DNA from: Escherichia phage 55
Strand: one strand, 5' to 3'
Sequence record: OQ599310
Length of the DNA: 64,000 bases
A model generated the notes under the pieces. It saw only the letters and a program-made list of their open reading frames with translations. It was not told the origin of the DNA and did not search any database. Numbering within the stretch: position 1 is the stretch's first letter; each line of letters opens with the position of its first letter. Below, piece by piece: positions 9,372 through 52,701 of this stretch. The position numbers were made by a program, and so were the translations under genes.

Positions 9372-9376
9372 TAAAA

Positions 9377-9396: not shown

Positions 9397-9400
9397 CGGG

Positions 9401-9430
9401 GTTTACATCTTCCTCTAGGCATGATATGAT
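9401..9430 (+). promoter_or_regulatory. T4-type early promoter
   Basis: GTTTAC then TATGAT with about 18 bp spacer. Confidence 0.45.
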
Positions 9431-9458
9431 GAACTTACACAAACCAAGAGGAAACATT

Positions 9459-9833: not shown

Positions 9834-9866
9834 GTTTACTTCTCCAGTAGTTGTGTTATTATAGAC
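9834..9866 (+). promoter_or_regulatory. T4-type early promoter with flanking 10-bp inverted repeat (CCAGTAGTTG / CAACTACTGG)
   Basis: GTTTAC at 9834-9839, TATTAT -10 at 17 bp; inverted repeat 9844-9853 and 9871-9880. Confidence 0.5.
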
Positions 9867-9888
9867 CTATCAACTACTGGAGAACAAA

Positions 9889-10206
9889 ATGAAAACCATC
9901 GATTGTAAAGCAGAATTTAAGATTTTTTATCACGGTTCAAGTAGTTCAGTTAACATCGAAAACATGCTTTGTCCTCCTGAAGAAACAGGAGTTCTGTCTG
10001 AAACTGGACGTAAGAAAAACTTGGATCGTGTATTCTTTACTGAAGATATCGGTTTAGCAAAGATTTATGCAGGACGAGCAGCACGCTCTTATGGAGGTGA
10101 ACCACGTCTCTATCGAGTAATTTCTCCGGTAGACGTAGTTCAAATGAATGATACTAAAGGTGCTACAGTTTATCACGCTGAATGGGCCTTCTGTGAGGAA
10201 ATCTAA
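9889..10206 (+). CDS. hypothetical protein
   Basis: ORF downstream of early promoter. Confidence 0.5.
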   Translation: MKTIDCKAEFKIFYHGSSSSVNIENMLCPPEETGVLSETGRKKNLDRVFFTEDIGLAKIYAGRAARSYGGEPRLYRVISPVDVVQMNDTKGATVYHAEWAFCEEI

Positions 10207-10207
10207 A

Positions 10208-10411
10208 ATGGAAAATATGGCTAAAGTGTTGTTTATTGGTTGGTTTGAAAATGGGAATATGTTTACCAAAGAAGTTACCATGGACGTGTCTGATAAAGAC
10301 CAAATCCTACGGGCCACTTCTCAATTTGCTGAAGTAAATAAAGCTTTAGTTGAAGCATTTGTTGATGATAAGAAAGTTTTTGAATCCGATTGGCGTAAAG
10401 AGGAAATCTAA
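10208..10411 (+). CDS. hypothetical protein
   Basis: ORF; start inside repeated junction GAGGAAATCTAAAATGGAA. Confidence 0.45.
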   Translation: MENMAKVLFIGWFENGNMFTKEVTMDVSDKDQILRATSQFAEVNKALVEAFVDDKKVFESDWRKEEI

Positions 10412-10412
10412 A

Positions 10413-10553
10413 ATGGAAGAAGTAGAATGTGTAGTGTGTGGTTGTAGCGTCTATGAAGACGAAGCTGTTTTCGATGCATATGATAATGCGACTTGTTTAG
10501 ACTGCGACCGTGAATCTGAAGAACATGCTTACGAGCATGAAGACGAGGAATAA
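10413..10553 (+). CDS. small acidic Cys-x-x-Cys protein (putative zinc ribbon)
   Basis: CVVCGC...CLDC motif pair; same repeated junction context as previous gene. Confidence 0.35.
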   Translation: MEEVECVVCGCSVYEDEAVFDAYDNATCLDCDRESEEHAYEHEDEE

Positions 10554-10565
10554 AATAAAATAATT

Positions 10566-10598
10566 GTTTACAGGGGTCTATGGTAGTGATACTATAGA
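10566..10598 (+). promoter_or_regulatory. T4-type early promoter (with GGTCTAT/ATAGACC inverted repeat)
   Basis: GTTTAC at 10566-10571, TACTATAG -10 region. Confidence 0.5.
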
Positions 10599-10623
10599 CC
10601 TATCAACTATAGAGGAAATTGAA

Positions 10624-10992
10624 ATGAAAAAATTAATCGCTTTAGCAATGGTATTTGGATTAACCGGATGTGGTGCTCATGGCTTTATCCCTAATAACGT
10701 TGGCCAATTGATTTATAACCCGAATGTTAAACAGTATAACCAACCTAAAGTTGAAGTGGAAGACCCGGTTACTGTAGGTAATCGAATGATTCAAGCTGAT
10801 GCTCATGCTCAACGTTATCGTGACTCTGATACTGTAGCTATGTCAAAAGAACAACGCGTTAAAGAACATTGTCTACAGGCTACTGAAATCGCATTTATTC
10901 GCTATGTTGAAACAACTGGTAAAGAGCCTACCCAGAAACAAATCGCGAATAACTACGTCCAGTGTATTGAACGTTTAAACAAATTTAATTAA
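10624..10992 (+). CDS. putative lipoprotein
   Basis: N-terminus MKKLIALAMVFGLTGC has signal peptide plus lipobox. Confidence 0.5.
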   Translation: MKKLIALAMVFGLTGCGAHGFIPNNVGQLIYNPNVKQYNQPKVEVEDPVTVGNRMIQADAHAQRYRDSDTVAMSKEQRVKEHCLQATEIAFIRYVETTGKEPTQKQIANNYVQCIERLNKFN

Positions 10993-10995
10993 TTG

Positions 10996-11028
10996 GTTTA
11001 CACCAAAGTTAAACCAAGATACTATAAA
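10996..11028 (+). promoter_or_regulatory. T4-type early promoter
   Basis: GTTTAC then GATACTATAAA. Confidence 0.45.
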
Positions 11029-11053
11029 CATAACAAATCAAGAGGAAATTAAC

Positions 11054-11302
11054 ATGGAATTATTCGTGGCTAGTTCAGTAGCAGTTTTAATCGCAGGTAT
11101 TGGTTCAATCATCATTTACATGTTGCCTTGGGTAATCGCACTTATTCGTGGCACAAAAAGCACAACAGCAATCTTCTTTGTATCTTTACTCTTTAACTGG
11201 ACGATGGTTGGTTGGATTGGAACTTTAATTTGGTCTATCGTTGCCGAAAAGAAATCGGCTCAGCAGCCTCAACAAGTAATTATTATTCGCGAAAAAGAAT
11301 AA
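11054..11302 (+). CDS. small integral membrane protein (two TM helices)
   Basis: strongly hydrophobic 82-aa translation. Confidence 0.5.
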   Translation: MELFVASSVAVLIAGIGSIIIYMLPWVIALIRGTKSTTAIFFVSLLFNWTMVGWIGTLIWSIVAEKKSAQQPQQVIIIREKE

Positions 11303-11306
11303 ACTT

Positions 11307-11340
11307 GTTTACATTATAGATGGACTATAGTATAGTAGTC
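11307..11340 (+). promoter_or_regulatory. T4-type early promoter
   Basis: GTTTAC then TATAGTATAGTAG. Confidence 0.45.
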
Positions 11341-11365
11341 CTATCAAATCAACTAAGGAGTTAAA

Positions 11366-11659
11366 ATGAAAAAGTTATCATTGGCAGCAATCCTACTTGC
11401 AGTATCATGTGCACCGGCTCCAGTTACGGCAGGTTATGATAAAGACCTCTGTGAGTGGTCAATGACTGCAAATCAAGAAGATGTTGAACAACAAATCTTC
11501 TCTGATATCATGAACATCACTAAACGAGACCGTCCTAATATGGTTAATAAAGTTGTTGAACAACTTAAGTCTGGCGGTATCATGCAGTACAACTATGTTT
11601 TGTATTGTGACCCTAATTTCGATAACAAAGATATCGTAACCGAAATCACAGGTGAATAA
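11366..11659 (+). CDS. secreted or lipoprotein-like small protein
   Basis: signal peptide MKKLSLAAILLAVSCAPAP. Confidence 0.5.
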   Translation: MKKLSLAAILLAVSCAPAPVTAGYDKDLCEWSMTANQEDVEQQIFSDIMNITKRDRPNMVNKVVEQLKSGGIMQYNYVLYCDPNFDNKDIVTEITGE

Positions 11660-11660
11660 T

Positions 11661-12311
11661 ATGATTTATTATATGCACAAAAACGCACCATTTAAATATG
11701 GTAAATTTCCTAATGCACAATGTTATAATATAACGCCGAATGAAAATAATAACGGATACCATATTGGTGTAATTTTTGTAATTGTTAAAGATAACGAAAT
11801 TGTTGCCTGGGCAGATTTTAAAGGTACAACATATGATGTTAATCCAGTGCCTTTCACATATTATAATTTAATGGATTTAGCATACGACTATAATTGGTTT
11901 ACTCATGATACTCTAGCACATGTTGAAGGCGTAGGATTTGACATCTCTTATTCTAGTTATTCATTATGTCCTATGAGCCGAGCTCACGGTAAAGATGTAT
12001 CATATCTTTCAATTCGGAAACGTGTAAACTTCAAACGTAGTACAGAGTATGTTGGTGGACTCTTTGTTAAAGATAATAAAATAACTCGTATTAGTTATCC
12101 TTTAAGTGTAGGTCAAAAAGATGTTGATGTTGATTTAGACTTAACTGAAAGTAACATTAATCGTATTGCTTCTGTATATTTTGATATCGATGAAAAAATT
12201 GTAGTGTGTGGATACGAATTACCACCTGAAGAAAAGGTTGAAGCAATTGAAGTCGAATTAGAAATTTCTGTTGATGACCAAATATTTAATGCATTTATGA
12301 ATCGAGGTTAA
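11661..12311 (+). CDS. hypothetical protein
   Basis: ORF; TAATATG junction with AGGTGA RBS. Confidence 0.45.
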   Translation: MIYYMHKNAPFKYGKFPNAQCYNITPNENNNGYHIGVIFVIVKDNEIVAWADFKGTTYDVNPVPFTYYNLMDLAYDYNWFTHDTLAHVEGVGFDISYSSYSLCPMSRAHGKDVSYLSIRKRVNFKRSTEYVGGLFVKDNKITRISYPLSVGQKDVDVDLDLTESNINRIASVYFDIDEKIVVCGYELPPEEKVEAIEVELEISVDDQIFNAFMNRG

Positions 12312-12312
12312 A

Positions 12313-12510
12313 ATGACTACTGCAATTTGCACTGGTTCTAAAATTAGTGTTTTTACAAGTTTTGAAGATTATGAAGTTGTTTCAAAACACCAATACAATA
12401 TTAGCGTAAAAGCTAATGATGGTGTAATTTGGAATATTCCACACTATGAAGACACTACATATGAAGTCACAGATGCGAACGGTGATAAAGCGATCTTTGT
12501 GATTGATTAA
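12313..12510 (+). CDS. hypothetical protein
   Basis: ORF tightly packed after previous gene. Confidence 0.4.
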   Translation: MTTAICTGSKISVFTSFEDYEVVSKHQYNISVKANDGVIWNIPHYEDTTYEVTDANGDKAIFVID

Positions 12511-12529
12511 ATATACTCAGGAGGTACCT

Positions 12530-12997
12530 ATGGGTATTATTAACACTGCAATAGATTCTGTTTACGCATATAAGTTTATTCGACTAATGCAAAAACCTTT
12601 TACCGAATGGAAAGCGTACGAAGCCAAAATAATCGACGAACGTGGAAGTGTTCTTAAACGTCCTTCTACTCCCGAAGAGAAAGCGGCTTATACACCTTTT
12701 CATGCTTCAGTTCGTTCAATGAAGCGAATGATGAGTACTGTTCCAGGTCTTAATGGAATGGCCTCAATGATGTCTGCCTGGAGTGCTGTAGCTTCACGCT
12801 ATAACATTACTGAAGAACAACAGAAAGAAATATTTAAAGAACTCCCTTTATTTGAGGATATGGTTGCTGGTGATTCAGGTGGCAGTCCTCAAGCTATTGC
12901 ATCAGGAACAACTACAGGTGCAGTCGTAAATAAAGGTCCAGAACAAATTCCTTCCAAGAAAAGAAAGCGAATTAAAGTAAATATTAATAAGTTGTGA
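12530..12997 (+). CDS. hypothetical protein
   Basis: ORF with AGGAGG RBS. Confidence 0.5.
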   Translation: MGIINTAIDSVYAYKFIRLMQKPFTEWKAYEAKIIDERGSVLKRPSTPEEKAAYTPFHASVRSMKRMMSTVPGLNGMASMMSAWSAVASRYNITEEQQKEIFKELPLFEDMVAGDSGGSPQAIASGTTTGAVVNKGPEQIPSKKRKRIKVNINKL

Positions 12998-13036
12998 TAA
13001 GATGGCCTTATTAATTTAAGGCCTCTGGAGAATACT

Positions 13037-14059
13037 ATGGCTGAATGGATAGATAATGAATTTGCTTATCGTGCGTTTTCTCACCTACCTCGTTTTAGAC
13101 AAATCAATAATTCAAGCACATTTAAATTAACATTTCGATGCCCAGTTTGTGGCGACTCTCAGACAGATGCAATGAAAGCCCGCGGATGGTATTATGGCGG
13201 TACTCCAGGTAATGTGCATTGCTATAACTGTCAATATCATAATACAATTTCTGGATACTTAAAAGAGTACGATGAAGAGCTTTATCGCGAGTATCTAATG
13301 GAAGTTCGTAAAGAAAAAGCTAGAATGGAACCAAAGATTGAAAAGGTTCCTGAAGCTAAGCCGGAGCCAGAGAAAAAGACTATAAATTCTTTGCCGTCTT
13401 GTTCTCGTCTGGACAAGCTGCCTGAAGAGCATCCTATTGTGAAATATGTTAAGTCTCGGTGTATTCCTAAAGAATCGTGGAACAGATTATGGTTCACATT
13501 AGAATGGCCCAAATTGGTCAACAAGATTCAACCTGGTACGTATAAGAAAGAGATTCCCGAACCACGTTTAGTGATTCCTATTTTTAATAAAGACGGGAAG
13601 GCCGAGTCATTCCAAGGACGTGCACTTCGTAAAGATGCTCCTCAGAAATATATCACTATTAAAGCGTTTGAGTCTGCAACAAAAATTTATGGTGTTGAAC
13701 GTGTTAAGGAAGGGGACGTCTGGGTAATGGAAGGCCCTATTGATAGTTTATTCATACCCAATGCAATCGCTATTACAGGCGGCTCAATAGATTTAGATGT
13801 GGTACCATTTAAAGAACGTCGGGTATGGGTAATGGATAATGAACCTAGGCATCCGGATACTATAGCTCGTATGAAGCGATTAGTTGATGCAGGCGAACGT
13901 GTCATGTTCTGGGACCGAGCTCCATGGAGATCAAAGGATGTGAATGATATGGTAATGAAAGAAAATGCAACACCACAAGAAATTTTAGAATATATGAAAC
14001 AGAATATTTCAAGTGGGTTGCATGCTAAAATGAGATTATCTCGTTATTCGAAGATTTAA
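13037..14059 (+). CDS. 61: gp61 DNA primase
   Basis: 340 aa; N-terminal zinc ribbon CPVCGDS...CYNCQ; TOPRIM-like EGPIDSL and DNEPRHPD motifs; position next to 41. Confidence 0.9.
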   Translation: MAEWIDNEFAYRAFSHLPRFRQINNSSTFKLTFRCPVCGDSQTDAMKARGWYYGGTPGNVHCYNCQYHNTISGYLKEYDEELYREYLMEVRKEKARMEPKIEKVPEAKPEPEKKTINSLPSCSRLDKLPEEHPIVKYVKSRCIPKESWNRLWFTLEWPKLVNKIQPGTYKKEIPEPRLVIPIFNKDGKAESFQGRALRKDAPQKYITIKAFESATKIYGVERVKEGDVWVMEGPIDSLFIPNAIAITGGSIDLDVVPFKERRVWVMDNEPRHPDTIARMKRLVDAGERVMFWDRAPWRSKDVNDMVMKENATPQEILEYMKQNISSGLHAKMRLSRYSKI

Positions 14060-14253
14060 ACAAGCCCTATAATAGCAAAGGCCAAATCAACTACAGTATC
14101 CAATGGAACAGAAGGAACCATAACACCATGGGCAACTAACAATGGTGCAATCCCGAAGTTCCATGAAATAATGCCACCTACAACTATTGCAGCGATAGCA
14201 GTTTTCTTTTTATTGCCTTTAATAGCGTTGATTAACGATGGAAGTTTAAACAT
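14056..14253 (-). CDS. small hydrophobic membrane protein on the opposite strand to the surrounding early genes
   Basis: 65-aa ORF, mostly hydrophobic (AIAAIVVGGIISWNFGIAPLLVAHGV); fills the gap between 61 and 56. Confidence 0.35.
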   Translation of the reverse strand: MFKLPSLINAIKGNKKKTAIAAIVVGGIISWNFGIAPLLVAHGVMVPSVPLDTVVDLAFAIIGLV

Positions 14254-14341
14254 AATATCTCCTTAGTTACCTATTATTTATTACGCTTTATAAAATTAAT
14301 GGTAGAATTAACTTTCTTATACTGAATTGAAAGGAAAAATA

Positions 14342-14863
14342 ATGGCACACTTTAACGAATGTTCACAACTTATTTCTGGTGTTGATAAAGCAGAAGAAGC
14401 TTATTTTAATGCTCTGATTCACGAAGATAAAGACCCACTGCAGGTAATGCTTGATATGCAGAAATCTTTACAGGTTCGTCTGGCAAATGACAAGCCTGAA
14501 CATAACAAACATCCTGATGAATTGGCTACTGCTGGTGATGTTGTTGATTGGCTGCGTAATCAGAAAGATTATATTGATGATGAATTCCGTGAACTGCTGA
14601 CTTCACTTGGTGGTATGAGCAATGGTGAAAAAGCCGCTAGCTCTGTATGGAAGCCATGGAAAGCACAACATGCTGAATATCGTAATCGTCGTATTGATGA
14701 ACTGTCTCCTGAAGACCAACTGGAAATTAAGTTTGAAATGATTGATATTCTCCATTTCGTTCTGAACATGTTCCAAGGTCTTGGTCTTACAGCAGAAGAA
14801 ATCTTTAAACTTTATTACCTGAAAAATGCTGAAAATTTCGCACGTCAAGACCGAGGTTATTAA
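14342..14863 (+). CDS. 56: dCTP pyrophosphatase (dCTPase-dUTPase), gene 56
   Basis: MAHFNEC...PLQVMLDMQ...ETAGDVVDW...EIFKLYYLKN..NFARQDRGY matches T4 gp56. Confidence 0.85.
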   Translation: MAHFNECSQLISGVDKAEEAYFNALIHEDKDPLQVMLDMQKSLQVRLANDKPEHNKHPDELATAGDVVDWLRNQKDYIDDEFRELLTSLGGMSNGEKAASSVWKPWKAQHAEYRNRRIDELSPEDQLEIKFEMIDILHFVLNMFQGLGLTAEEIFKLYYLKNAENFARQDRGY

Positions 14864-15030
14864 TGGCTCGTTTAAATAAACGCCAGCTCAAGAAAGCCCA
14901 TAAGAAACGTATTGACCAGCTATTTAAAGATTATAACAAAGAGCTCGTGTGTGAGCTCTTAACTAATCAACTTCGTATGGTTGAAGTTATAGAAGGTCCT
15001 GACGAAATTTTGTCAGTGAAGAAGCTTTAA
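14863..15030 (+). CDS. small basic hypothetical protein (55 aa)
   Basis: TAATG overlap with gene 56 stop; below ORF-track cutoff. Confidence 0.3.
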   Translation: MARLNKRQLKKAHKKRIDQLFKDYNKELVCELLTNQLRMVEVIEGPDEILSVKKL

Positions 15031-15052
15031 AATTAATTATAGAGCATTCAAA

Positions 15053-15277
15053 ATGAAATTTGATTTCTACGCATGGCAAAAAGCCGGGAGACCGGCTAAT
15101 AAAGCATTCGGCTCTGATGGATATAATACTAGACTCCACTGGAAATTTAATACTCCAGATGATTATTCTCCGGTAATAATTAACGGCGGTGTTGTTATAT
15201 TAGCTAAATTCGGATATTTTATTGTCCCGAAGAAATTCATTATAAATACACCTGTAATTAAACAACAAAGGAGTTAA
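15053..15277 (+). CDS. hypothetical protein
   Basis: ORF. Confidence 0.4.
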   Translation: MKFDFYAWQKAGRPANKAFGSDGYNTRLHWKFNTPDDYSPVIINGGVVILAKFGYFIVPKKFIINTPVIKQQRS

Positions 15278-15279
15278 TT

Positions 15280-15516
15280 ATGGGTGGTTATGTAAACATC
15301 AAAACCTTTACGCATCCTGCTGGTGAAGGTAAAGAAGTTAAAGGTATGGAAGTTTCTGTGCCGTTTGAGATTTATTCAAACGAACATCGGATCGCAGATT
15401 CTCATTACCAAATCTTTCCATCAGAAAAGGCAGCTTATTCTACTGTAGTTTCTGATGCAGCTGACTGGAAAACTAAGAACGCTGCAATGTTTACCCCTAC
15501 ACCAGTAAGTGGTTAA
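15280..15516 (+). CDS. soc: small outer capsid protein Soc
   Basis: GYVNIKTF...HYQ.FPSEKAAYSTV matches T4 Soc; 78 aa. Confidence 0.8.
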   Translation: MGGYVNIKTFTHPAGEGKEVKGMEVSVPFEIYSNEHRIADSHYQIFPSEKAAYSTVVSDAADWKTKNAAMFTPTPVSG

Positions 15517-15523
15517 ATAATTT

Positions 15524-15552
15524 AAGGAATCCTTCGGGATTCCTTTTTTTTG
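15524..15552 (+). terminator. rho-independent terminator after soc
   Basis: AAGGAATCCTTCGGGATTCCTT hairpin then 8 T. Confidence 0.7.
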
Positions 15553-15560
15553 TTTATACA

Positions 15561-15590
15561 GTTTACAACCACTAAAAACTGTGTTAAGAT
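15561..15590 (+). promoter_or_regulatory. T4-type early promoter
   Basis: GTTTAC then TAAGAT at 18 bp. Confidence 0.45.
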
Positions 15591-15618
15591 ATTCTTACTT
15601 ACTCAAGAGGAGAACAAT

Positions 15619-15846
15619 ATGTTAAATCGTTGGATTAAACCTAATAACACATTAGGTGCTTTGATTGCTCAAGAAGTTTCGTTGAAATACGGTCTTGGAT
15701 ATTACGATGATGTAGTCATACACTCATTCATGATGGATGGTGAAGACGTCAAATTTAATGCTGAAATCCGTTGGGATGATGGTGGTGTTCGTTTTGTTCG
15801 AGGAACAATTAATGCTTACGATACTGAAGAAGTTATTTGCTGTTAA
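15619..15846 (+). CDS. hypothetical protein
   Basis: ORF with AGAGGAG RBS. Confidence 0.45.
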   Translation: MLNRWIKPNNTLGALIAQEVSLKYGLGYYDDVVIHSFMMDGEDVKFNAEIRWDDGGVRFVRGTINAYDTEEVICC

Positions 15847-15859
15847 ACCAGGCGAAGGG

Positions 15860-16048
15860 ATGATGCCTATTCCTGATACACACGAAAAAAGTTGGGAATA
15901 CATTGGTGACGGCATGATGGAAGAAGTTATTCGTCCTAAGTCTGCTTCAAGCTCTTCAAGTTATAATCATTCATACGTATCGTCTTGGCCTGGTGATTCC
16001 GGGTCAAGTTATTCTGATTGTGGTTCAAGCTCAGGGAGCTGCGAATGA
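15860..16048 (+). CDS. hypothetical Ser-rich small protein
   Basis: ORF; start chosen at internal Met after GAAGGG. Confidence 0.3.
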   Translation: MMPIPDTHEKSWEYIGDGMMEEVIRPKSASSSSSYNHSYVSSWPGDSGSSYSDCGSSSGSCE

Positions 16049-16224
16049 ACAAGTTAGTTAAATGGTTTAAAAGCTGGGACGATGGTGTCGGTCCAGAAGA
16101 TTGGCTGGATGTTCTTGAAGAGAATATGGCTAAAGAATTCCAGAAACATGAAGAAAAGCTCGTCGAAGATGAAGGCGAACGTATTGTAAAACTTTATATG
16201 GGTGAACCATCGAGGAAATTATAA
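16045..16224 (+). CDS. hypothetical protein
   Basis: ATGA overlap start. Confidence 0.35.
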   Translation: MNKLVKWFKSWDDGVGPEDWLDVLEENMAKEFQKHEEKLVEDEGERIVKLYMGEPSRKL

Positions 16225-16688
16225 TGGATGCTATGCTATTTAAAATGTATTTGCTTGAAGCCAAGTCATTTAAACATATACCAGTAGAAGATAAGACTCC
16301 ACTAGAAATAGCTATTCTCATTAACAAAAGTCTAAATAATCCGCAATATATCGTAGAAGAATTCTGCAAATTGCAGATTCCTAAAGGTTACAAAATTCGT
16401 GTAGAGCGAGTTGGAGCTATTACTCGTTCTAAAAATTCTCCGTTTAGTCTTGAAGAAGGCATAAAGGACTTAGGTTATGAATCCACGGAAAATGCTGTTT
16501 ATGTGAATCCTGAAAAGCGTTTAGACCTGTTTGAAAAGCGGGACCATAAGTATTTTGCCAAAAAATACTTTATTACATCATTAGCAGATTTAGTCCATTT
16601 GCAACGAGCTATTTGGAAATTTTTTAAGACAAAAGGTGTAGCGCTAGAAACATTCTCCGAGCAGCCTAGTTTTTATTTAGGTGAATAA
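16224..16688 (+). CDS. hypothetical protein (in the position of T4 mrh)
   Basis: 154-aa ORF; assignment by position only. Confidence 0.4.
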   Translation: MDAMLFKMYLLEAKSFKHIPVEDKTPLEIAILINKSLNNPQYIVEEFCKLQIPKGYKIRVERVGAITRSKNSPFSLEEGIKDLGYESTENAVYVNPEKRLDLFEKRDHKYFAKKYFITSLADLVHLQRAIWKFFKTKGVALETFSEQPSFYLGE

Positions 16689-16689
16689 T

Positions 16690-16869
16690 ATGGACCTTAT
16701 GAGTATGTTTGACGAGCCTGAAGTTGAGGCTCCTAAAGTGCATCGTAGTGAACTTGTTGATGAACTAGATAGTATTATACAACGACACGGCTTTAGTTTA
16801 CCTGTTGAAGCCCTGAAAGACCTTGCCTCTTATTATGACGACCCTCCGCCATGGAGTCCTTGGAAATGA
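16690..16869 (+). CDS. hypothetical protein
   Basis: TAATATG junction. Confidence 0.4.
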   Translation: MDLMSMFDEPEVEAPKVHRSELVDELDSIIQRHGFSLPVEALKDLASYYDDPPPWSPWK

Positions 16870-17029
16870 AAGAGAAATTTAAAGAGAAATTCTTACTAGA
16901 AATCAAGGAAAAAGACTTTGAGACATGGTATCGAATGGTGAAAGGGTTGACATTGCTTTTTAAAGCATCTTTATTCATGTTAGAACAACCCGGTCCTGAT
17001 GGTCCTTTAGTAGGAAAGCTTAAAAAGTA

Positions 17030-17058
17030 GTTTACATTCCCTCCTCTCGTGTTATGAT
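17030..17058 (+). promoter_or_regulatory. T4-type early promoter
   Basis: GTTTAC then TATGAT at 17 bp. Confidence 0.5.
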
Positions 17059-17085
17059 AGGCTTATCTTTAAATGGAGGTCTATC

Positions 17086-17667
17086 ATGACATGTCAATCT
17101 GAACTTCAAGAACGCGAGTATCTCGCAGCACTAATTAACGATAAATTCACTAAACAAGAACAAAACATTCTCTGGGCTTGCACCGATTCTAAGGAAGACC
17201 CGGATTTCCACTATGAATTAGACCATCTTGTTCGTAAGCATATGACTTCTACAGTACCAGTAGAACTCTACCGTGGTGTAACTCCAGAAGAAGTAGAACA
17301 TCTTTCCCTTCTTTCTGTTGGATGCCATTGGTCTCCTGGACGAGTAACATCGTTCACAACTGATTTCAGTACGGCTCGTCAATTCTCTGGGAGATGGGAA
17401 TATCAGACGTACACTATTCTTAGTCTCAGGAATGCTCCATTCATTTTTGATTACTACCAAAACATGGTTAACATTGTACTCGCCGGAAAGAATCCTAAGC
17501 ATGTTATGGAAGAAACGCGCGTTGACGTCCTAGATATGATTGAATCTGAACAAGAGTACATGGTCTCAGGCATCTCTAGATTTGAGATTGTGGAAATTGA
17601 AGACTTAGAATATGACCCTTTATCTCGATTATACAAAATCATTCATTTGAAAATGTTGAATTTTTAG
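17086..17667 (+). CDS. modB: ADP-ribosyltransferase, ModA/ModB family (first of two paralogs)
   Basis: R-S-E type motifs (YRG, TTDFS, E-x-E); order relative to dda matches T4 modB. Confidence 0.55.
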   Translation: MTCQSELQEREYLAALINDKFTKQEQNILWACTDSKEDPDFHYELDHLVRKHMTSTVPVELYRGVTPEEVEHLSLLSVGCHWSPGRVTSFTTDFSTARQFSGRWEYQTYTILSLRNAPFIFDYYQNMVNIVLAGKNPKHVMEETRVDVLDMIESEQEYMVSGISRFEIVEIEDLEYDPLSRLYKIIHLKMLNF

Positions 17668-17698
17668 TGTACAAACTCTTCCTATGATGATACTATAC
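17667..17698 (+). promoter_or_regulatory. possible early promoter
   Basis: GTGTAC then TATGAT/TACTAT. Confidence 0.35.
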
Positions 17699-17724
17699 CT
17701 TTATCAACAACAGGAGAAACCAAA

Positions 17725-18333
17725 ATGTTTATGCCGTATAACGAGTGTGAAATTGAAGAAATGGTTCGTCGTGCTCAAAACCCCGAATATCAAGATGTAT
17801 TGCAGTACGAAATTGATAGTCAATTCAGCGACATTGAACAAAGTGTACTGTGGCAGTGTATGGAAAACAAGCCAGACTGTATTCAACAGGAGTTAAGTTC
17901 AATCGTTCGTAGAAATTGGACGTCTTCTGTTCCTGAGACAATGTATCGTGGAATCTCTAAGAAAACTATGGCCACACTTGATGATAAAGGCATCGGTAGT
18001 ATTATTAAATTTGACAGAGTAATGAGCTTCAGTCCAGTGTTCGGTGTAGCACGTAACTTTGCTTCGTATAATTTTTACGGAACATTTAATATGTTCTGCA
18101 TCAAAGATGCACCATTTGCTTTCAACTTCCGTGAACATATGCTTAACATGATTCTGGCTGCGCCATCTTGTGAGTTCAATGGAGCTTTCCCTGAAGCGAC
18201 AAGACGGTCTAATGCTAGACTTATATCTGACGAATGTGAATTTATGCTCCCTATAGGGACTACACTGCGTGTAGATTCTATTATTCAAGATGGACGTTAT
18301 ACAATCTGGAATCTGTCTATTGTCGGTTACTGA
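17725..18333 (+). CDS. modA: ADP-ribosyltransferase, ModA/ModB family (second paralog)
   Basis: YRG, S-x-S (MSFSPV), ECEF motifs; paralogous to previous gene. Confidence 0.55.
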   Translation: MFMPYNECEIEEMVRRAQNPEYQDVLQYEIDSQFSDIEQSVLWQCMENKPDCIQQELSSIVRRNWTSSVPETMYRGISKKTMATLDDKGIGSIIKFDRVMSFSPVFGVARNFASYNFYGTFNMFCIKDAPFAFNFREHMLNMILAAPSCEFNGAFPEATRRSNARLISDECEFMLPIGTTLRVDSIIQDGRYTIWNLSIVGY

Positions 18334-18407
18334 CTGGATTGGAATAACCGGATGGAACTCAGAACCATTATAACACATAAAAAATTAAAGCATTTTATGA
18401 AAAAAGA

Positions 18408-18438
18408 GTGTACACTACCTGAGGGCATGATATTATAA
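18408..18438 (+). promoter_or_regulatory. T4-type early promoter
   Basis: GTGTAC then TATTATAA at 17 bp. Confidence 0.45.
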
Positions 18439-18486
18439 GCTTATCAGCTAAATGACCTTAACGTCCGTAAGACAGAGGAAAATATT

Positions 18487-19233
18487 ATGTTATCAAATAA
18501 TAAAATTAACAAAATCAATCGTCGTCTTGACCACACCAGAGCTTCTGCGAAGAGACGCTCTAAGGATTTTAACTTAGACTTTAATTACCTTAAAAACATT
18601 CTTGATCAAAAGGTCTGCGCTTACTCAGGTGAATCTTTTAATAACTCTGTTGAAGGTGAGAAATTATCCTTAGAACGTTTTAATAATGATATAGGCTACA
18701 TTAAAGGTAATGTTATCCCAGTTAAGAAAAAATATAACACGGCTCGTTCTGATTTAACACTAGAAGAACTTATTGAGAAACGTGACGCTGTTGCAAGACG
18801 TATTGCTAATCCTTCTGCCCGTAAAGTAGAGAAACTTAATCTCGACGAGAAGAAATGGGCCCAAATTAAAAAGGTTTATGATACTATTTTAAAAATCCGA
18901 GCAAAACGTGAAAATCGTGTTAAGCATATGGCGAACATGATGAAAAATCAACCTTTATCTAACGAATCTAAACTTAGAATTGTTGCTTTGAAAGCACGCA
19001 TTAATGGCTCACATCAAGCAGAAGGCCATGAACTTACTAAACTCAACGTTCTTCTTAAAGGCTCTGACTGGAAAACTAAAACTAAATTAACTGACGCTGA
19101 ATCGCTTTTCGATACATATGATAAAGTTATCCAAGGTCTGCGACGTTTTGAAAAGATTGGTTTCATTGGTAAATTAAAATTGAAACGTGGCTTACCACTT
19201 AGCGCATCATTATTCCAACTGATTAAAGGTTAA
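18487..19233 (+). CDS. hypothetical basic protein in the position of T4 srd
   Basis: 248-aa ORF between modA and dda; assignment by position only. Confidence 0.4.
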   Translation: MLSNNKINKINRRLDHTRASAKRRSKDFNLDFNYLKNILDQKVCAYSGESFNNSVEGEKLSLERFNNDIGYIKGNVIPVKKKYNTARSDLTLEELIEKRDAVARRIANPSARKVEKLNLDEKKWAQIKKVYDTILKIRAKRENRVKHMANMMKNQPLSNESKLRIVALKARINGSHQAEGHELTKLNVLLKGSDWKTKTKLTDAESLFDTYDKVIQGLRRFEKIGFIGKLKLKRGLPLSASLFQLIKG

Positions 19234-19235
19234 TT

Positions 19236-19547
19236 ATGGTTTATGTATATGCAATAGTTTATCGAGATATGGAAGGATTTACTGTCCCGGTTCCACTTGA
19301 TGAGCATCGTCCTGCAGTATTTTTTAGAAAGGATATTGCAGATAAAGTTTTCGATACTTTGAAAACACAGTATAAAACAGATTTAAAAATGGGAGTTCTA
19401 AGAATGGTCGAAACTCCGCGTAAGTTCTGGTTTAATAAGCTTGAAATGAAACACGTTAAACTAGATGCGGAGACGCAAAGATTGTATCAACGAATTCTGG
19501 ACACAGGCCGTATTGTTAGTATTCCAATTGCAGGGACTTTACGATGA
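19236..19547 (+). CDS. hypothetical protein (dda.1 position)
   Basis: ORF overlapping dda start. Confidence 0.4.
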   Translation: MVYVYAIVYRDMEGFTVPVPLDEHRPAVFFRKDIADKVFDTLKTQYKTDLKMGVLRMVETPRKFWFNKLEMKHVKLDAETQRLYQRILDTGRIVSIPIAGTLR

Positions 19548-20857
19548 CATTTGATGATTTGACTGAAGGCCAGAAAAACGCCTTCAACGTTGTTATGAAC
19601 GCTATTAAAGAAAAGAAACATCACGTAACTATTAATGGGCCTGCTGGTACAGGTAAAACAACCCTTACTAGATTCATCGTTGAAGCTCTTATTTCTGCCG
19701 GAGAATCAGGTATTATTTTAGCAGCCCCTACACATGCTGCTAAAAAGGTTCTAAGCAAACTTGCGGGTCAAGAAGCATCGACTATTCATAGCATTCTTAA
19801 AATCAACCCAACTACATACGAAGAAAACGTATTGTTTGAACAGAAAAAGGTTCCCGACTTAGCCTTGTGTCGTGTACTGTTATTTGATGAAGCGTCAATG
19901 TGTGACCGTTCTCTGTTTAAAATAATGTTAGCTAGTATCCCTAAATGGTGCACAGTAATTGGAATTGGTGACCGATGTCAGATTCGACCGGTAGACCCAG
20001 GCGAATCAACTGCGTATCTAAGTCCTTTCTTCACTCACAAAGACTTTGTGCAATGCGACCTTACAGAAGTTAAACGTAGCAATGCACCAATTATTGATGT
20101 TGCGACTGATATTCGTAATGGCAAATGGATTTATGATAAAGTAGTTGATGGGCATGGTGTTCATGGATATACAGACCTTAAATCGTATATGATGAATTAT
20201 TTTAATGTCGTTAAAACTCCTGAAGACCTTTTCGAAAATCGAATGATGGCATTCACAAATAAGTCAGTAGATAAGTTGAATTCAATTATTCGCCGAAAAC
20301 TTCTTGAAACAGAAAAACCATTTATTAAAGACGAAGTCATTGTTCTACAAGAGCCGTTTACCAAGACATATAAGCTAGATGGCAAAAATATGACCGAAAT
20401 GCTTTTCAATAACGGGCAGTTCGTTCGTATTCGAGACGCTGTAGAAACGTCTACATTCGTTAAAGCACGTGGTGTTTCAGGCGAATATATGATACGATAC
20501 TGGAATCTTACAGTAGAAACATATGGCGATGATGAAGAATACGTCCGCGAGGATATAAAGGTTATTTCTTCTGAAGAAGAGCTTTATAAATTCAATTTGT
20601 TTTTGGCTAAGACCGCAGAAACATATAAATTCTGGAATAAAGGCGGTAAAGCTCCATGGAGCGAATTCTGGGATGCTAAACGTATGTTCACTAAGGTGAA
20701 GGCATTACCAGTATCAACCTTCCATAAGGCCCAGGGTATGTCTGTTGACACGGCCTTTGTTTATACACCGTGTATCCATTATGCCGATTCAGAATTAGCC
20801 AAACAATTACTATATGTCGGCACAACTCGTGGTCGTTTTGACGTCCATTTTATTTGA
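19544..20857 (+). CDS. dda: Dda SF1 DNA helicase
   Basis: 437 aa; Walker A GPAGTGKTT; SF1 motifs; T4 Dda-like length. Confidence 0.9.
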   Translation: MTFDDLTEGQKNAFNVVMNAIKEKKHHVTINGPAGTGKTTLTRFIVEALISAGESGIILAAPTHAAKKVLSKLAGQEASTIHSILKINPTTYEENVLFEQKKVPDLALCRVLLFDEASMCDRSLFKIMLASIPKWCTVIGIGDRCQIRPVDPGESTAYLSPFFTHKDFVQCDLTEVKRSNAPIIDVATDIRNGKWIYDKVVDGHGVHGYTDLKSYMMNYFNVVKTPEDLFENRMMAFTNKSVDKLNSIIRRKLLETEKPFIKDEVIVLQEPFTKTYKLDGKNMTEMLFNNGQFVRIRDAVETSTFVKARGVSGEYMIRYWNLTVETYGDDEEYVREDIKVISSEEELYKFNLFLAKTAETYKFWNKGGKAPWSEFWDAKRMFTKVKALPVSTFHKAQGMSVDTAFVYTPCIHYADSELAKQLLYVGTTRGRFDVHFI

Positions 20858-20866
20858 GAGAAAATT

Positions 20867-21544
20867 ATGAGCACTGATGTTATTATAGATTTTGAAACAT
20901 TCGGCAATACATCAAAAGCGGCTGTTATTGACCTTGCGGTTATTGCATATAATTCGGACCCTGAAGTTGTTGAAACATTTGAAGAACTTGTTCAACGAGG
21001 TAAGCGAATTAAATTTAATTTAGCTTCTCAAAAAGGGAAGCGAGTTTTCGCTAAATCCACTATGAAATGGTGGAAAGAACAATCAGCAGAAGCACGTAAA
21101 AACCTGGCTCCGTCTGAAGACGATGTCACTACGCTTGAAGGCATTAAAATCTTTTTAGACTATTGCCGAGCTAATAAAGTTGACCAATGGAAATCACAGA
21201 TGTGGTGCCGTGGTATGAGCTTTGACTTCCCGATCTTGGTCGATTTGATTCGTGACCTCTATCGTGATGAAGGTGTTCTTGAACCAGATATTGATACTGA
21301 TAAATTAGAACCTGTTAAATTCTGGGCTCAACGTGATATTCGTACGGCAATCGAAGCTTACTCGTTGACACGAGGATTAAGTATGTGTCCATTACCGATG
21401 GGTACGCTAAAAGGATTCGTTGCCCATGATAGTATTCATGATTGTGCTAAAGATATTTTGATGTTAAAATATGCTCAGCGTTATGCGCTTGGCCTTGAAG
21501 ATGTCCCTGAGAATCCTGACCCGTTAAGTGTAAAACAGCGATAA
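20867..21544 (+). CDS. dexA: exonuclease A (DnaQ-like 3'-5' exonuclease)
   Basis: N-terminal IIDFETFG, WCRGMSFDFPILVDLIRD resemble T4 DexA; 225 aa. Confidence 0.75.
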   Translation: MSTDVIIDFETFGNTSKAAVIDLAVIAYNSDPEVVETFEELVQRGKRIKFNLASQKGKRVFAKSTMKWWKEQSAEARKNLAPSEDDVTTLEGIKIFLDYCRANKVDQWKSQMWCRGMSFDFPILVDLIRDLYRDEGVLEPDIDTDKLEPVKFWAQRDIRTAIEAYSLTRGLSMCPLPMGTLKGFVAHDSIHDCAKDILMLKYAQRYALGLEDVPENPDPLSVKQR

Positions 21545-21549
21545 AACCA

Positions 21550-21579
21550 GTTTACAACCAAGGATGGTTGGAGTATAAT
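21550..21579 (+). promoter_or_regulatory. T4-type early promoter with inverted repeat (ACAACCA/TGGTTGG)
   Basis: GTTTAC then TATAAT at 18 bp. Confidence 0.55.
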
Positions 21580-21609
21580 CTTTCTATCTTAACCAAACAG
21601 GAAAACATT

Positions 21610-22104
21610 ATGAATATCAATACTACGGCTACTTACATCCTGAAAGATGAAAAACAAATCAACTGGTATGGTGCTTCAGTGCGAGCTTATGAAAAGTTTT
21701 GTGAAATTTTAGGTGCCACTCAAGGTAATAGTTTCACTATTGTTAACTTCATCAAACAAGTTGAAGGCCCTTGGTTATTCTTAGAAATTAAAAATTCATA
21801 TGGTACAATTTCTACTACCGCCCTTCCAAGCACCGACTTTGAACTGCTGATTGAAGAAGTAGAACCCGTTAAAGATATCTGTATTGATATGGATATCGCT
21901 TGTATGTACGGTACTCTTATTAAGCCTATTGAGCCTACTGATTTGCTGTGTAAATATGTTTCAATTCGACGCCCATTCGCTGGTCCAGTAAATGGATGGG
22001 TAACTGATCAGTGGATTGAAGACGGTGTTGAACTTCTGAACGTTGTTCATGCCGGTGATTTTAGTGTGGTTCCACGTAGTGCAGTAGTTAATATTCTAAA
22101 TTAA
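21610..22104 (+). CDS. hypothetical protein, member of a three-gene tandem paralog family
   Basis: C-terminus TDQWIEDGVELLNVVHAGDFSVV shared with the next two ORFs. Confidence 0.45.
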   Translation: MNINTTATYILKDEKQINWYGASVRAYEKFCEILGATQGNSFTIVNFIKQVEGPWLFLEIKNSYGTISTTALPSTDFELLIEEVEPVKDICIDMDIACMYGTLIKPIEPTDLLCKYVSIRRPFAGPVNGWVTDQWIEDGVELLNVVHAGDFSVVPRSAVVNILN

Positions 22105-22105
22105 T

Positions 22106-22136
22106 GTTGTACATCCAAGGATGGATGGAGTATAGT
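22106..22136 (+). promoter_or_regulatory. early promoter with inverted repeat (CATCCA/TGGATG)
   Basis: TTGTAC then TATAGT. Confidence 0.45.
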
Positions 22137-22168
22137 GAATTCAATTTAAACAAAGAGAGAGAGAAATT

Positions 22169-22624
22169 ATGATTACTATTGGTGAAATTAAGCGTGTATC
22201 GTCTGCATCTCGTTCTAAAGCTGCAGGTCGTCTAGTTGAAGTGGTAGGACTTCGTACTAATGGTACTGGACGTGTTAAAGAAGTTAAAGTTCGAATCATT
22301 CCTAGTTCTGGAAAAACTGAAACTCAGTACGCTTACGTAAGTCCTAAATTCTTGGAAACTCATGTGAGCGCTCATTTTGCTTCTACTGAACCTAATGTAC
22401 AGTTCAAATGGGCCCTTTGCAAAGGCGTTGAATTCCGGACTGATAAAGAATTTGATTTCATCGACGAATATGGTTATCCAAACAAAACTGATATTATGTG
22501 CGGCTTCATCACTGACCAATGGGTTGAAGATGGTGAAAAGTTATACAATATCGTATTCTTAGGTGACTTCCGAGTTGTTAAAGAATCTGAAATCACTCGC
22601 TATGTGTCTCCTCGTAAAGCTTAA
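22169..22624 (+). CDS. hypothetical protein, tandem paralog
   Basis: SASRSKAAGRLVEV... and DQWVEDGEKLYNIVFLGDFRVV shared with neighbours. Confidence 0.5.
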   Translation: MITIGEIKRVSSASRSKAAGRLVEVVGLRTNGTGRVKEVKVRIIPSSGKTETQYAYVSPKFLETHVSAHFASTEPNVQFKWALCKGVEFRTDKEFDFIDEYGYPNKTDIMCGFITDQWVEDGEKLYNIVFLGDFRVVKESEITRYVSPRKA

Positions 22625-22633
22625 GGAATTATT

Positions 22634-23053
22634 ATGAATATTGTAAATCTCTCTACAGGTGATTACGTATATGTATCTGTTGCTTCTCGCTCTAAAGTTG
22701 CCGGGAAGTTGGTTGAAGTTCTTTCTGTGAGTGATCCGGTTTTTGGTCGTAACCAAGTTAAAGTTCGTGATGCTAATGGTAATATTGGCTACGTCTCAAG
22801 CCAGTTCATTGAGCCAGAAGAAAAAGCGTTCAAATGGGGACTATGCAGATCAGTTTCTGTTGAAAAAGACCATGAATTCACTATTGCCGCGGCAACTGAT
22901 GGAACGCCATGGAAAACTAAGCAAATCGCCGGATTTATTAGCGACCGTTGGGTAGAAGATGGTGTTAAGCTTTATAACATCGTTTTCGCTGGTCAGTTCA
23001 TGGTAGTTCCTGAATTCCAAATTAAAAAATATAGCCCAGCTGCTTTCGCATAA
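22634..23053 (+). CDS. hypothetical protein, tandem paralog
   Basis: VASRSKVAGKLVEV... and DRWVEDGVKLYNIVFAGQFMVV. Confidence 0.5.
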   Translation: MNIVNLSTGDYVYVSVASRSKVAGKLVEVLSVSDPVFGRNQVKVRDANGNIGYVSSQFIEPEEKAFKWGLCRSVSVEKDHEFTIAAATDGTPWKTKQIAGFISDRWVEDGVKLYNIVFAGQFMVVPEFQIKKYSPAAFA

Positions 23054-23057
23054 AGTT

Positions 23058-23089
23058 GTTTACTTCTCCTCTGGTTTTGATATTATAAC
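23058..23089 (+). promoter_or_regulatory. T4-type early promoter with 11-bp inverted repeat (CTCCTCTGGTT / AACCAGAGGAG)
   Basis: GTTTAC, TATTAT at 17 bp; repeat arms 23066-23076 and 23096-23106. Confidence 0.5.
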
Positions 23090-23112
23090 CATATCAACCA
23101 GAGGAGAATAAT

Positions 23113-52695: not shown

Positions 52696-52701
52696 TAAAT
52701 T

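Follow-up and report, generated by a model that had tools for sequence, protein, structure and literature searches.

The early region and its promoter cassettes

The window analysed here, a stretch of 64,000 nucleotides from Escherichia phage 55 (sequence record OQ599310), belongs to a T4-like phage of the genus Mosigvirus, and it matches Shigella phage SHSML-52-1 at 97.5% identity along the whole of bases 9000-24000. According to the annotation of that phage, the early region carries gene 41, dmd, imm, sp, primase 61, dCTPase 56 and mrh, followed by two mod ADP-ribosyltransferase genes, srd, dda, dexA and motB, up to cef, all of these genes being on the + strand. Dispersed among them are short early-promoter cassettes containing inverted repeats, and the present work deals with the stems that these repeats can form, with the nucleic acid in which they are selected, and with their relation to the translation signals of the genes that follow. 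The first-pass annotation of this DNA had proposed a search for GTTTAC-N17-TATAAT; the promoter motif GTTTAC-N15-19-TANNNT occurs 25 times in the window, compared to 4.7 +/- 2.0 copies expected. Twenty-two of the 25 copies are located on the + strand, i.e., the gene strand, and about 19 are followed by a Shine-Dalgarno (SD) sequence and a start codon that opens an open reading frame (ORF).

These cassettes share a common layout composed of an A-rich upstream region, GTTTAC as the -35 element, about 17 nt, TAnnnT as the -10 element, about 7 nt to the predicted transcription start, a leader of about 20 nt containing the SD, and the ATG. Transcription starts were predicted throughout from the -10 spacing (about 7 nt after the -10). 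Since the distance from the -10 to the ATG is near-constant (26-31 nt in most cassettes), the cassette is a fixed-format module. The cassettes occur in clusters, located at 9.4-11.3, 15.5-23, 32-38 and 60-63 kb, and the late tail-fibre block of the window is devoid of them. The genes placed after cassettes are mostly PHROGs of unknown function; a Pfam search of the proteins encoded downstream of the cassettes returned no match, and a search of the window against Rfam returned none either, no family in that database covering these structures. The cassettes match the published T4/PST early-promoter consensus TTTACW-N17-TAYWAT (PMC2839356, PMC4122927), and their initial identification as T4-type promoter early stem-loop (PeSL) cassettes, as defined in the same two studies, stands.

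Stems that join the promoter to the translation start

The geometry of the stems is heterogeneous and falls into three classes, namely (a) stems that occlude the ribosome-binding site (RBS), found in P9834, P23058, P17030 and, in a weaker form, P9401; (b) self-contained hairpins on or around the -10 or the -35; and (c) separate terminator-like stem-loops upstream of the -35. All the features described below are on the + strand unless otherwise indicated.

One of the two longest stems is found in P9834 (9834-9891), which has its -35 at 9834-9839, its -10 TATTAT at 9857-9862, a predicted start at about 9869 and its ATG at 9889. In this cassette, the arm TTCTCCAGTAGTTG (9840-9853) pairs with CAACTACTGGAGAA (9871-9884) over 14 perfect base pairs enclosing a loop of 17 nt, and the order of elements is GTTTAC, TTCTCCAGTAGTTG, TGT, TATTAT, AGACCTAT, CAACTACTGGAGAA, CAAA and ATG, with the SD GGAG inside the 3' arm. 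A comparable arrangement occurs in P23058 (23058-23115; -10 at 23081-23086, predicted start about 23093, ATG at 23113), where TTCTCCTCTGGTT (23064-23076) and AACCAGAGGAGAA (23096-23108) form 13 perfect base pairs and the SD again lies within the 3' arm. The gene after P23058 was assigned as a motB.2 homolog, for which tblastn against the phage collection was used, a related-locus search having given only three loci for this homolog and three for the ORF at 32322. P17030 (17030-17091; -35 at 17030-17035, predicted start about 17065, ATG at 17086) precedes the first mod ADP-ribosyltransferase gene. Its 5' arm (17050-17063) consists of the -10 TATGAT (17053-17058) plus the discriminator, and its 3' arm (17078-17091, GGTCTATCATGACA) covers the end of the SD and the ATG start codon, in a helix of 14 pairs, three of them G.U. 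Finally, in P9401 (9401-9461; -35 at 9401-9406, -10 TATGAT at 9425-9430, predicted start about 9437, ATG at 9459) the spacer pairs with the SD through nine pairs between TTCCTCTAGG (9410-9419) and CCAAGAGGAA (9444-9453).

The three inverted repeats cited as examples in the first-pass annotation are, thus, all present in the sequence. Nevertheless, the arm lengths given there fell short at two of them (10 bp for the 14 bp at the 9834 site, 11 bp for the 13 bp at the 23058 site), and the third, at 21556-21572 in P21550 (21550-21612), is a real hairpin of only 5-6 bp, confined to the spacer (21555-21560 with 21565-21570, CAACCA/TGGTTG), which taken alone is at chance level. The further remark that the downstream arm often includes the SD applies to three or four of the nine cassettes in the region (P9401, P9834 and P23058, plus P17030), most of the others being self-contained hairpins on or around the -10 or -35.

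Enrichment of stems at the promoters

Between the -35 and the ATG, 15 of the 18 cassettes of the window contain a perfect stem of 6 bp or more and 8 of the 18 one of 7 bp or more, compared to 32% and 11%, respectively, of random same-strand windows (binomial p = 1e-5 and 3e-4). The longest helix between the spacer and the cassette's own region past the -10 averages 5.9 bp in the window, falling to 4.4 bp when the partners are swapped between cassettes (permutation p < 5e-5). To these were added 1.3 Mb of T4-like early regions from IMG/VR, containing 273 cassettes that were reduced to 233 non-redundant ones; in an earlier 1.0 Mb subset, 200 cassettes lay on the gene strand and 20 on the opposite strand. 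Of the 233 pooled cassettes, 26% have a stem of 8 bp or longer, compared to 3.6% of random windows and 2.8% of shuffled sequences, and 29% have a helix of 7 bp or longer straddling the -10, compared to 6.5% of chimeras that preserve positional composition. Overall, the excess of stems amounts to 4-8x over random, shuffled or chimeric controls, so that the absence of enrichment, which had been named beforehand as the outcome that would speak against these elements, was not observed. The possibility that the stems arise by chance or as a by-product of the promoter consensus (TATA-like palindromes and the conserved AGACCTATC downstream of the -10) is, therefore, largely refuted and has become extremely improbable, since the enrichment persists against the partner-swap controls and against the chimeras, in all of which the consensus is retained, and the lineage-specific covariation and the strand asymmetry described below are foreign to it, even though single stems of 5-6 bp, 21555-21570 among them, do not exceed chance, 6 bp or more being found in 32% of random windows, and arms overlapping the -10 obtain some complementarity for free.

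Of the 102 pooled cassettes whose stem measures 7 bp or more, 39 have an arm that overlaps the -10 and 33 a stem that brackets the -10 with its 3' arm at the start site; in 14 the bracketing stem extends as far as the SD, and in 16 the two arms are both located in the leader. Only 5 of these 102 stems have at least four T in the 8 nt after the 3' arm and, thus, the stems embedded in promoters, as far as their sequence goes, are not canonical intrinsic terminators.

Read-through transcription and strand asymmetry

The first-pass annotation had reasoned that, with the upstream arm lying above the transcription start, the repeat must act at the DNA level as a cruciform or in recombination. A co-oriented ORF precedes each of P9834, P17030 and P23058, its stop codon standing 0-4 nt away from the -35 without any predicted terminator in the interval: the stop TAA (9831-9833) directly abuts the GTTTAC of P9834, the stop TAG (17028-17030) overlaps the -35 of P17030 (TAGTTTAC), and the upstream stop is 4 nt ahead of the -35 in P23058. 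As the stops abut or overlap the -35, the intergenic spacer at 9831-9839 and 17028-17035 is essentially the cassette alone. Given this position of the stops and the lack of a terminator, both arms are present in RNA initiated at upstream promoters. Read-through is general in T4 early regions, where extended early transcripts are a main source of middle RNA (PMC2988021), and the arrangement found here indicates, at the level of the sequence, that transcription from upstream promoters reads through the cassettes. The inference that a DNA-level role is necessary is, consequently, not supported.

The choice between RNA and DNA was addressed through wobble pairs. A G.U pair stabilises the sense RNA only, because the opposite strand then has an A.C mismatch, and a cruciform needs both strands folded. 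Comparing helix lengths under Watson-Crick plus G.T and Watson-Crick plus A.C rules was uninformative and was replaced by the classing of the juxtapositions that flank perfect cores of at least 6 bp as G.T or A.C. Beside the stems, G.T and A.C juxtapositions stand at 95:29, compared to 552:486 in random windows and 432:429 in shuffled sequences, and where the next position pairs again the counts are 43:7. The G.T fraction is 0.73 (95% interval 0.60-0.85 by bootstrap over 96 sequence clusters), with a null value of about 0.52. In a chimera control that keeps positional composition, the real stems gave 71:29 and the chimeras 342:459 (Fisher p = 1e-7). Thus, the G.T:A.C ratio is about 2.5-3.3:1 in the stems and 0.75-1.1:1 in the controls. 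Moreover, the sense strand folds better than the antisense strand by a mean of 1.55 kcal/mol (p = 2e-5).

This asymmetry excludes a symmetric cruciform. A cruciform would be recognised by mismatches without strand bias, by equal foldability of both strands and by a short spacer, whereas the stems show the bias described, fold better on the sense strand and, where long, enclose loops of 17-21 nt. Loops of this size are unfavourable for cruciform extrusion. The stems are, therefore, most likely selected as sense-RNA structures formed in read-through transcripts from upstream promoters, and not as DNA cruciforms. The way in which the stems track translation signals likewise favours RNA over single-stranded non-template DNA.

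Predicted occlusion of the ribosome-binding site and its conservation

The predicted starts at about 9869, 17065 and 23093 fall past the ends of the respective 5' arms at 9853, 17063 and 23076, a matter of geometry only that assumes initiation about 7 nt after the -10. An RNA read through from upstream would, thus, contain both arms, and one initiated at the cassette's own promoter only the 3' arm. In silico, the read-through RNA folds better than its shuffles with z = -3.9 for P9834 (a fold of -25.5 kcal/mol), -4.4 for P23058 and -2.6 for P17030, compared to z = -0.5, +1.1 and +0.7, respectively, for the unstructured RNA that begins at the predicted start. RBS accessibility was calculated from the partition function, as the probability of positions -14 to +3 being unpaired. 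With its own upstream half each of these sites is largely closed (0.16 for P9834, 0.24 for P23058 and 0.19 for P17030), and it is more open behind foreign upstream halves (0.50 +/- 0.09, 0.48 and 0.41, respectively). P9401, with an accessibility of 0.42 in read-through RNA and 0.63 in RNA from its own promoter, is predicted to be a moderate, weaker occluder.

The helix before the first mod gene, in which the -10 and discriminator pair with the SD and ATG, is kept with differing arms in eight sequences from at least five lineages, including T4 modB. Examples of the arm pairs are TATGATAGCTTCTG/CGGAGGCTATCATG in T4 and ATGATGACCT/AGGTCATCAT, ATGACCTCT/GGAGGTCAT and TAATGGCCTTT/AGAGGCCATTA in others, and the helix averages 12.0 bp when both arms come from the same lineage, compared to 7.3 bp across lineages. 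RNAalifold finds 13 pairs in this cassette, three of them changed on both sides and many with U.G. Since the MAFFT alignment of the mod sequences placed a one-base register shift of the window's lineage in one arm only, matrices of own-lineage versus cross-lineage pairing were used in place of column-wise pair counts. In the same manner, the hairpin that sequesters the SD of motB.2 is kept in Mosigvirus, Dhakavirus, Tequatrovirus (T4 and T6) and Kanagawavirus with differing arms and G.U pairs, and its duplex energy computed with RNAduplex is -21.2 kcal/mol within lineages compared to -13.3 kcal/mol across them.

In distant genera, different genes are preceded by nearly one and the same leader, TAT[GA]ATGACCTC...GGAGGTCATATG, whose -10 is paired with the translation initiation region: motB.2 in L125 (Edwardsiella phage PEi26) and the first mod gene in L059-L064. 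Such a coincidence could reflect either the transfer of a cassette or the convergent origin of a helix with complementarity to the -10 and the ATG.

Self-contained hairpins and other features of the window

Class b comprises P10566, P10996, P11307, P15561, P32266, P32778, P60057, P61239 and P62645. P10566 (10566-10626) carries a self-contained hairpin (10574-10585 with 10590-10601) of 12 pairs, two of them G.U, closed by a 4 nt loop; the -10 TACTAT is located inside its 3' arm and the RBS is free. A hairpin of nine pairs, TGGTTTACAC/GTTAAACCA, lies over the -35 of P10996 (10994-11016). Upstream of sp, the hairpin of P11307 (11307-11368) joins 11319-11328 with 11335-11345 in 10 pairs, one of them G.U, and overlaps the -10 TATAGT. 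P15561 (15561-15621) has a small hairpin over the -35 (15559-15564 with 15576-15581) and also weak pairing of the -10 with the ATG region. Hairpins of 11 pairs surround the -10 both in P32266 (from 32266; 32277-32287 with 32294-32305) and in P32778 (to 32838; 32789-32799 with 32806-32816), the latter including three G.U. In the interval 52752-62705, P60057 contains a stem at 60065-60071 with 60075-60081, P61239, which precedes alc, one at 61246-61251 with 61258-61263, and P62645 one at 62659-62665 with 62674-62680, with the -10 in the loop. In the same interval, the spacer of P52752 pairs with its SD over 6 bp (TTTCCT/AGGAAA).

Some of these self-contained hairpins open the RBS more than foreign upstream halves do, e.g., in P10566 (0.73 compared to 0.48). 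The hairpin at the -10 before sp recurs in four lineages with unrelated arms (-13.2 kcal/mol within lineages, -6.9 kcal/mol across them). Hairpins of this class, placed on the -10 or -35, would form only in read-through RNA, where they probably act as intercistronic RNA elements in attenuation, stability or insulation of the next RBS. The alc cassette P61239 was also considered as an occluder because of its accessibility (0.23 compared to 0.57), but it was rejected as its fold is no better than that of shuffled sequences (z = -1.1).

Class c is represented by two stem-loops. The terminator-like AAAGGAGAC-TTCG-GTCTCCTTT (9375-9396), detected by folding, lies just past the stop of gene 41 (9369-9371) and just before the -35 of P9401, and is the PeSL form described as a stem-loop upstream of the promoter. 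The second, AAGGAATCC-TTCG-GGATTCCTT followed by a T run (15524-15545), is a canonical intrinsic terminator immediately upstream of P15561. P35347 and P35668 (35347-35736) are tandem, near-identical cassettes on either side of an ORF of 71 aa (35415-35630). As regards the neighbouring genes, an ORF of 65 aa on the - strand (14056-14253), between primase 61 and dCTPase 56 and hypothetical in SHSML-52-1, is the sole minus-strand gene of that early block.

Cassettes as sites of gene shuffling

A comparison of cassette positions among related phages, also proposed at the outset, places them at gene-shuffling junctions: 5 of 24 alignment breakpoints fall in the 3% of the sequence occupied by cassettes (p = 6e-4). 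Compared to JS98-like phages, the window contains an extra unit composed of P9401 and its ORF, and homology resumes at the -35 of P9834. The single promoter present at this place in JS98-type phages appears to be a chimera, combining a P9401-like spacer with a leader identical to P9834's; the stem is reduced there to 5-6 bp. An indel relative to the closest relatives, L057 and L058, ends inside P10566, at 10586-10600. In addition, in L121 (13003-13115), a sequence 96% identical to the window, one hybrid cassette replaces P35347, the 71-aa ORF and P35668, so that the ORF is missing; the crossover is located within the common segment formed by the SD, the ATG and the first codons. The repeated promoter and leader of P35347 and P35668 extend over about 77 bp, and the ORF between them, of unknown function, is phrog_6200, which makes this arrangement a textbook candidate for the excision or insertion of a PeSL mini-circle. 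Furthermore, the cassette that precedes sp in JS98-like phages is the one that precedes a different gene (P10566) in the window.

The published role of PeSLs in shuffling is, thus, supported by these alignments, in which three rearrangements relative to close phages end in cassettes. As far as can be judged from the junctions, such exchanges need only the 40-80 bp of promoter and leader sequence that cassettes have in common, and nothing in them implicates the stem itself, which removes a further ground for assigning the inverted repeat to DNA.

Other differences among these genomes lie near cassettes or away from them. The body of the first mod gene (17104-17543) is a diverged allele in L058, which is otherwise 96% identical, and several GenBank phages lose homology at 17104-17123, i.e., 18-40 nt into the mod gene and just past the cassette; these breakpoints suggest that alleles were exchanged with the cassette as an anchor. 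Some 376 bp (14864-15240), a segment which carries the small ORF 14863-15030 and most of 15053-15277 (virion/head proteins in SHSML-52-1), is absent from L058 and JS98-like relatives, where its flanks are contiguous. As its junctions are not at an early-promoter cassette, another mechanism is involved. Finally, around the gene 32 / frd region (52513-56127, compared to L003) there is a patch of low identity (83-94%) to SHSML-52-1, with small rearrangements; a homing endonuclease is annotated nearby in the relative, and this patch probably reflects mosaicism associated with mobile endonucleases.

A proposed translational gate in read-through RNA

In our judgement, the account that best explains these observations, and one that we hold to be reasonably probable, is that they are early-promoter cassettes of the PeSL kind whose stems are selected in read-through sense RNA, a conserved subset of them gating the RBS. 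It starts from what can be observed directly in the sequences, namely the anatomy of the cassettes, their enrichment in stems, the strand asymmetry, the covariation and the recombination junctions. In P9834, P23058 (motB.2), P17030 (mod) and the weaker P9401, the 5' arm would lie above the cassette's own start, and the 3' arm is formed by the SD and/or the start codon. Transcripts from the own early promoter would, in consequence, leave the RBS open, and read-through transcripts would bury it, so that these genes would be translated only from immediate-early transcripts. An untranslated cistron might additionally invite Rho-dependent polarity. The start sites, the folding in vivo and the effect on translation are the conditional steps of this scheme. 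Independently of the stems, the 40-80 bp common to cassettes provide the homology for inserting, deleting and swapping promoter-plus-ORF units. The production of ModA has been reported to be very toxic (PMC2988021), and this toxicity would provide a rationale for confining its translation to immediate-early transcripts. We would propose more tentatively, as a stronger version that we consider somewhat less likely than not, that PeSL stems exist only in read-through RNA and that the mod/motB.2 subclass, found across Tevenvirinae including T4, constitutes an 'immediate-early-only' gate, the gene being translated from its own short transcript and silenced, and possibly RegB-shielded or Rho-polarised, in later read-through RNA. 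No description of an early promoter inside an occluding hairpin was found in the open-access literature, the older subscription literature not being covered by this search.

A number of observations weigh against this account. RBS occlusion as a general function of the stems was rejected: over 231 cassettes, mean accessibility is 0.469 with the own and 0.482 with a foreign upstream half (p = 0.31) and, hence, a translational gate accounts for only a minority of stems. The P23058 stem of one close relative contains an A.C mismatch, Serratia phage 92A1 has a motB.2 without the hairpin, sp and srd of T4 lack one, and JS98-like relatives do not keep the long stem of P9834, having only 5-6 bp in its place. 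The excess of G.T could also reflect a hairpin of single-stranded DNA on the non-template strand or a mutation bias linked to transcription, although the bias derived from base composition is, by a rough estimate, at most about 1.3-fold. The two longest stems (P9834 and P23058) are perfect and, thus, provide no wobble information of their own. Under the strictest clustering, with one representative per cluster, the counts drop to 14:7 and are not significant; this scheme always took the longest perfect stem, which biases against wobbles, and was replaced by the cluster bootstrap. Moreover, start positions are predictions from the -10 spacing; a genome-wide dataset of T4 5' ends was not found in our search, and the RefSeq record of T4 contains no promoter features.

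Among the other explanations, the one that survives best, although we consider it rather unlikely, is that of the PeSL authors, in which the stem-loops terminate or attenuate upstream transcripts and insulate each promoter-plus-ORF unit. A stem-loop of phage RB49 placed before lacZ lowered expression as much as rrnB T1 (PMC2839356), but this assay cannot separate termination from effects on translation or stability, and the stems of RB49 are of the type G4...C4, unlike the AT-rich stems found here. The stem-loops upstream of promoters at 15524-15545, with its T run, and 9375-9396 do look like real terminators; however, a U tract is missing from the stems that lie within promoters or bracket them, as the low count of T-rich tails given above indicates. 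An RBS-occluding hairpin could also cause Rho polarity and behave as an attenuator.

A protective role against ribonucleases, either by shielding GGAG-containing SDs from RegB or as intercistronic stabilisers against RNase E and exonucleases, is somewhat less probable still as the main function. RegB cuts GGAG in early translation initiation regions, with GGAGRAYARAA as the strong site, and secondary structure protects from it (PMC3014915); delayed-early RNA, for its part, has been described as sensitive to nucleases (PMC2988021). In P9834, the SD region GGAGAACAAAA (9879-9889) is an exact match to the RegB consensus, which recurs with one mismatch in P23058 (23103-23113) and P15561 (15609-15619) and exactly at 53656-53666, and the GGAG of P9834 would be paired in the modelled read-through hairpin. 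Nevertheless, enrichment of RegB sites was rejected, given that GGAGRAYARAA with at most one mismatch occurs 10 times in the window compared to 10.3 expected, which leaves just the individual matches at the three SDs as noteworthy, and most stems do not contain an SD. Shielding of this kind is compatible with the gate in read-through RNA and does not exclude it.

A DNA-level element, in which a cruciform or a single-stranded fold serves as a recombination signal that mobilises the cassettes, must be considered improbable. Cassettes do coincide with rearrangement junctions, and the PeSL authors speculated that the stem is a target for recombination proteins (PMC2839356). Yet a symmetric cruciform predicts equal numbers of G.T and A.C, contrary to the ratios observed here, and the loops of the long stems are too wide to favour it. 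A strand-specific hairpin of single-stranded DNA, as in integron attC sites, would also tolerate G.T, but neither form explains why the SD or ATG should be found in the 3' arm, or why, from genus to genus, the helices of mod and motB.2 should follow the start codon. Furthermore, the crossover in L121 took place in the common leader and first codons and not in the stem, both cassettes involved being only weakly stemmed, and the arm sequences differ between cassettes, leaving no common site for a protein.

Of similarly low probability is translational coupling, whereby the hairpin would hide the downstream SD until a ribosome ending the upstream ORF melts the 5' arm. The distances at two cassettes would suit it, since the upstream stop is 6 nt ahead of the 5' arm in P9834 and 10 nt in P23058, and the SD pairs with the outermost part of the arm. 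However, in the best-conserved case, P17030 before mod, the gap is 19 nt, which, by the ribosome footprint, lies beyond the reach of a terminating ribosome; such a ribosome would, moreover, open at most a few of the 13-14 pairs, and P9401 comes after a terminator-like hairpin and not after the end of an ORF.

Should the gate in read-through RNA operate as proposed, it would be a simple mechanism by which ModA and other toxic immediate-early proteins are confined to the opening minutes of infection, bearing on the old question of how early expression is shut down despite continued read-through. The wobble asymmetry moves the study of PeSLs to RNA structure, translation and decay and away from DNA recombination signals, and the role of the common promoter sequence in recombination becomes separable from the role of the stem.

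Comparison with known systems

The comparison with integron attC sites was drawn by the PeSL authors themselves. Both systems comprise small gene cassettes with imperfect inverted repeats that are exchanged between related genomes, and attC folds as a strand-specific single strand, from which a strand asymmetry would follow too. They differ in that no integrase is involved here, the junctions fitting plain homologous recombination between repeats of 40-80 bp, and in that the present repeats carry a promoter and an RBS, with 3' arms that track translation signals. With intrinsic terminators, the stems share their nature as intergenic RNA stem-loops between co-oriented genes, and real examples lie upstream of P9401 and P15561. 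Nevertheless, the embedded stems overlap promoter elements, have loops of up to 21-30 nt and, with the few exceptions counted above, have no U tract; a G+C-rich hairpin directly followed by a U tract is found only at 15524-15545.

The closest relatives are the PeSLs described in other T4-type phages (Arbiol 2010, PMC2839356; Comeau 2014, PMC4122927), which likewise consist of a strong early promoter and a stem-loop followed by an SD and a start codon, are intergenic and placed before small ORFs in plastic regions, show several stem positions relative to the -35 and -10, contain G.T pairs in their stems and undergo indels and swaps between close relatives. At the sequence level, the cassettes of the window show all the defining traits, i.e., an early promoter, an adjoining or overlapping stem-loop, an intergenic position before an SD and a mostly small ORF, and a location at rearrangement junctions. 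They are, thus, PeSLs by the sequence-level definition and new instances, in Mosigvirus, of a known kind (PMC2839356, PMC4122927). Two differences stand out. Firstly, published T4/PST stems are drawn just upstream of the promoter, whereas here they are mostly inside or across it, with a subset reaching the SD or ATG. Secondly, the published function is that of a terminator and recombination linker, whereas the present stems bear the marks of selection in sense RNA, lack a U tract and are unsupported as recombination signals.

The occluding subset has its nearest counterpart in the genes e, soc, 49 and I-TevI of T4, where the RBS is buried in the long transcripts but not in those that begin at a promoter within the hairpin (PMC3014915). 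In P9834, P23058 and P17030, as well as in T4 modB and motB.2, the SD or AUG would be buried in the same way, with the 5' strand of the hairpin upstream of the proximal start. The promoter of the e-type genes, in contrast, is late (gp55-dependent, TATAAATA) and delays expression, and here it is of the early sigma-70 type with the opposite predicted effect. As the internal promoter is not a late one, the occluding subset would be a variant of the e-type device and not a member of it, by analogy its temporal mirror image, and the early promoter within a hairpin is an arrangement that the mod and motB.2 genes of T4 itself also present.

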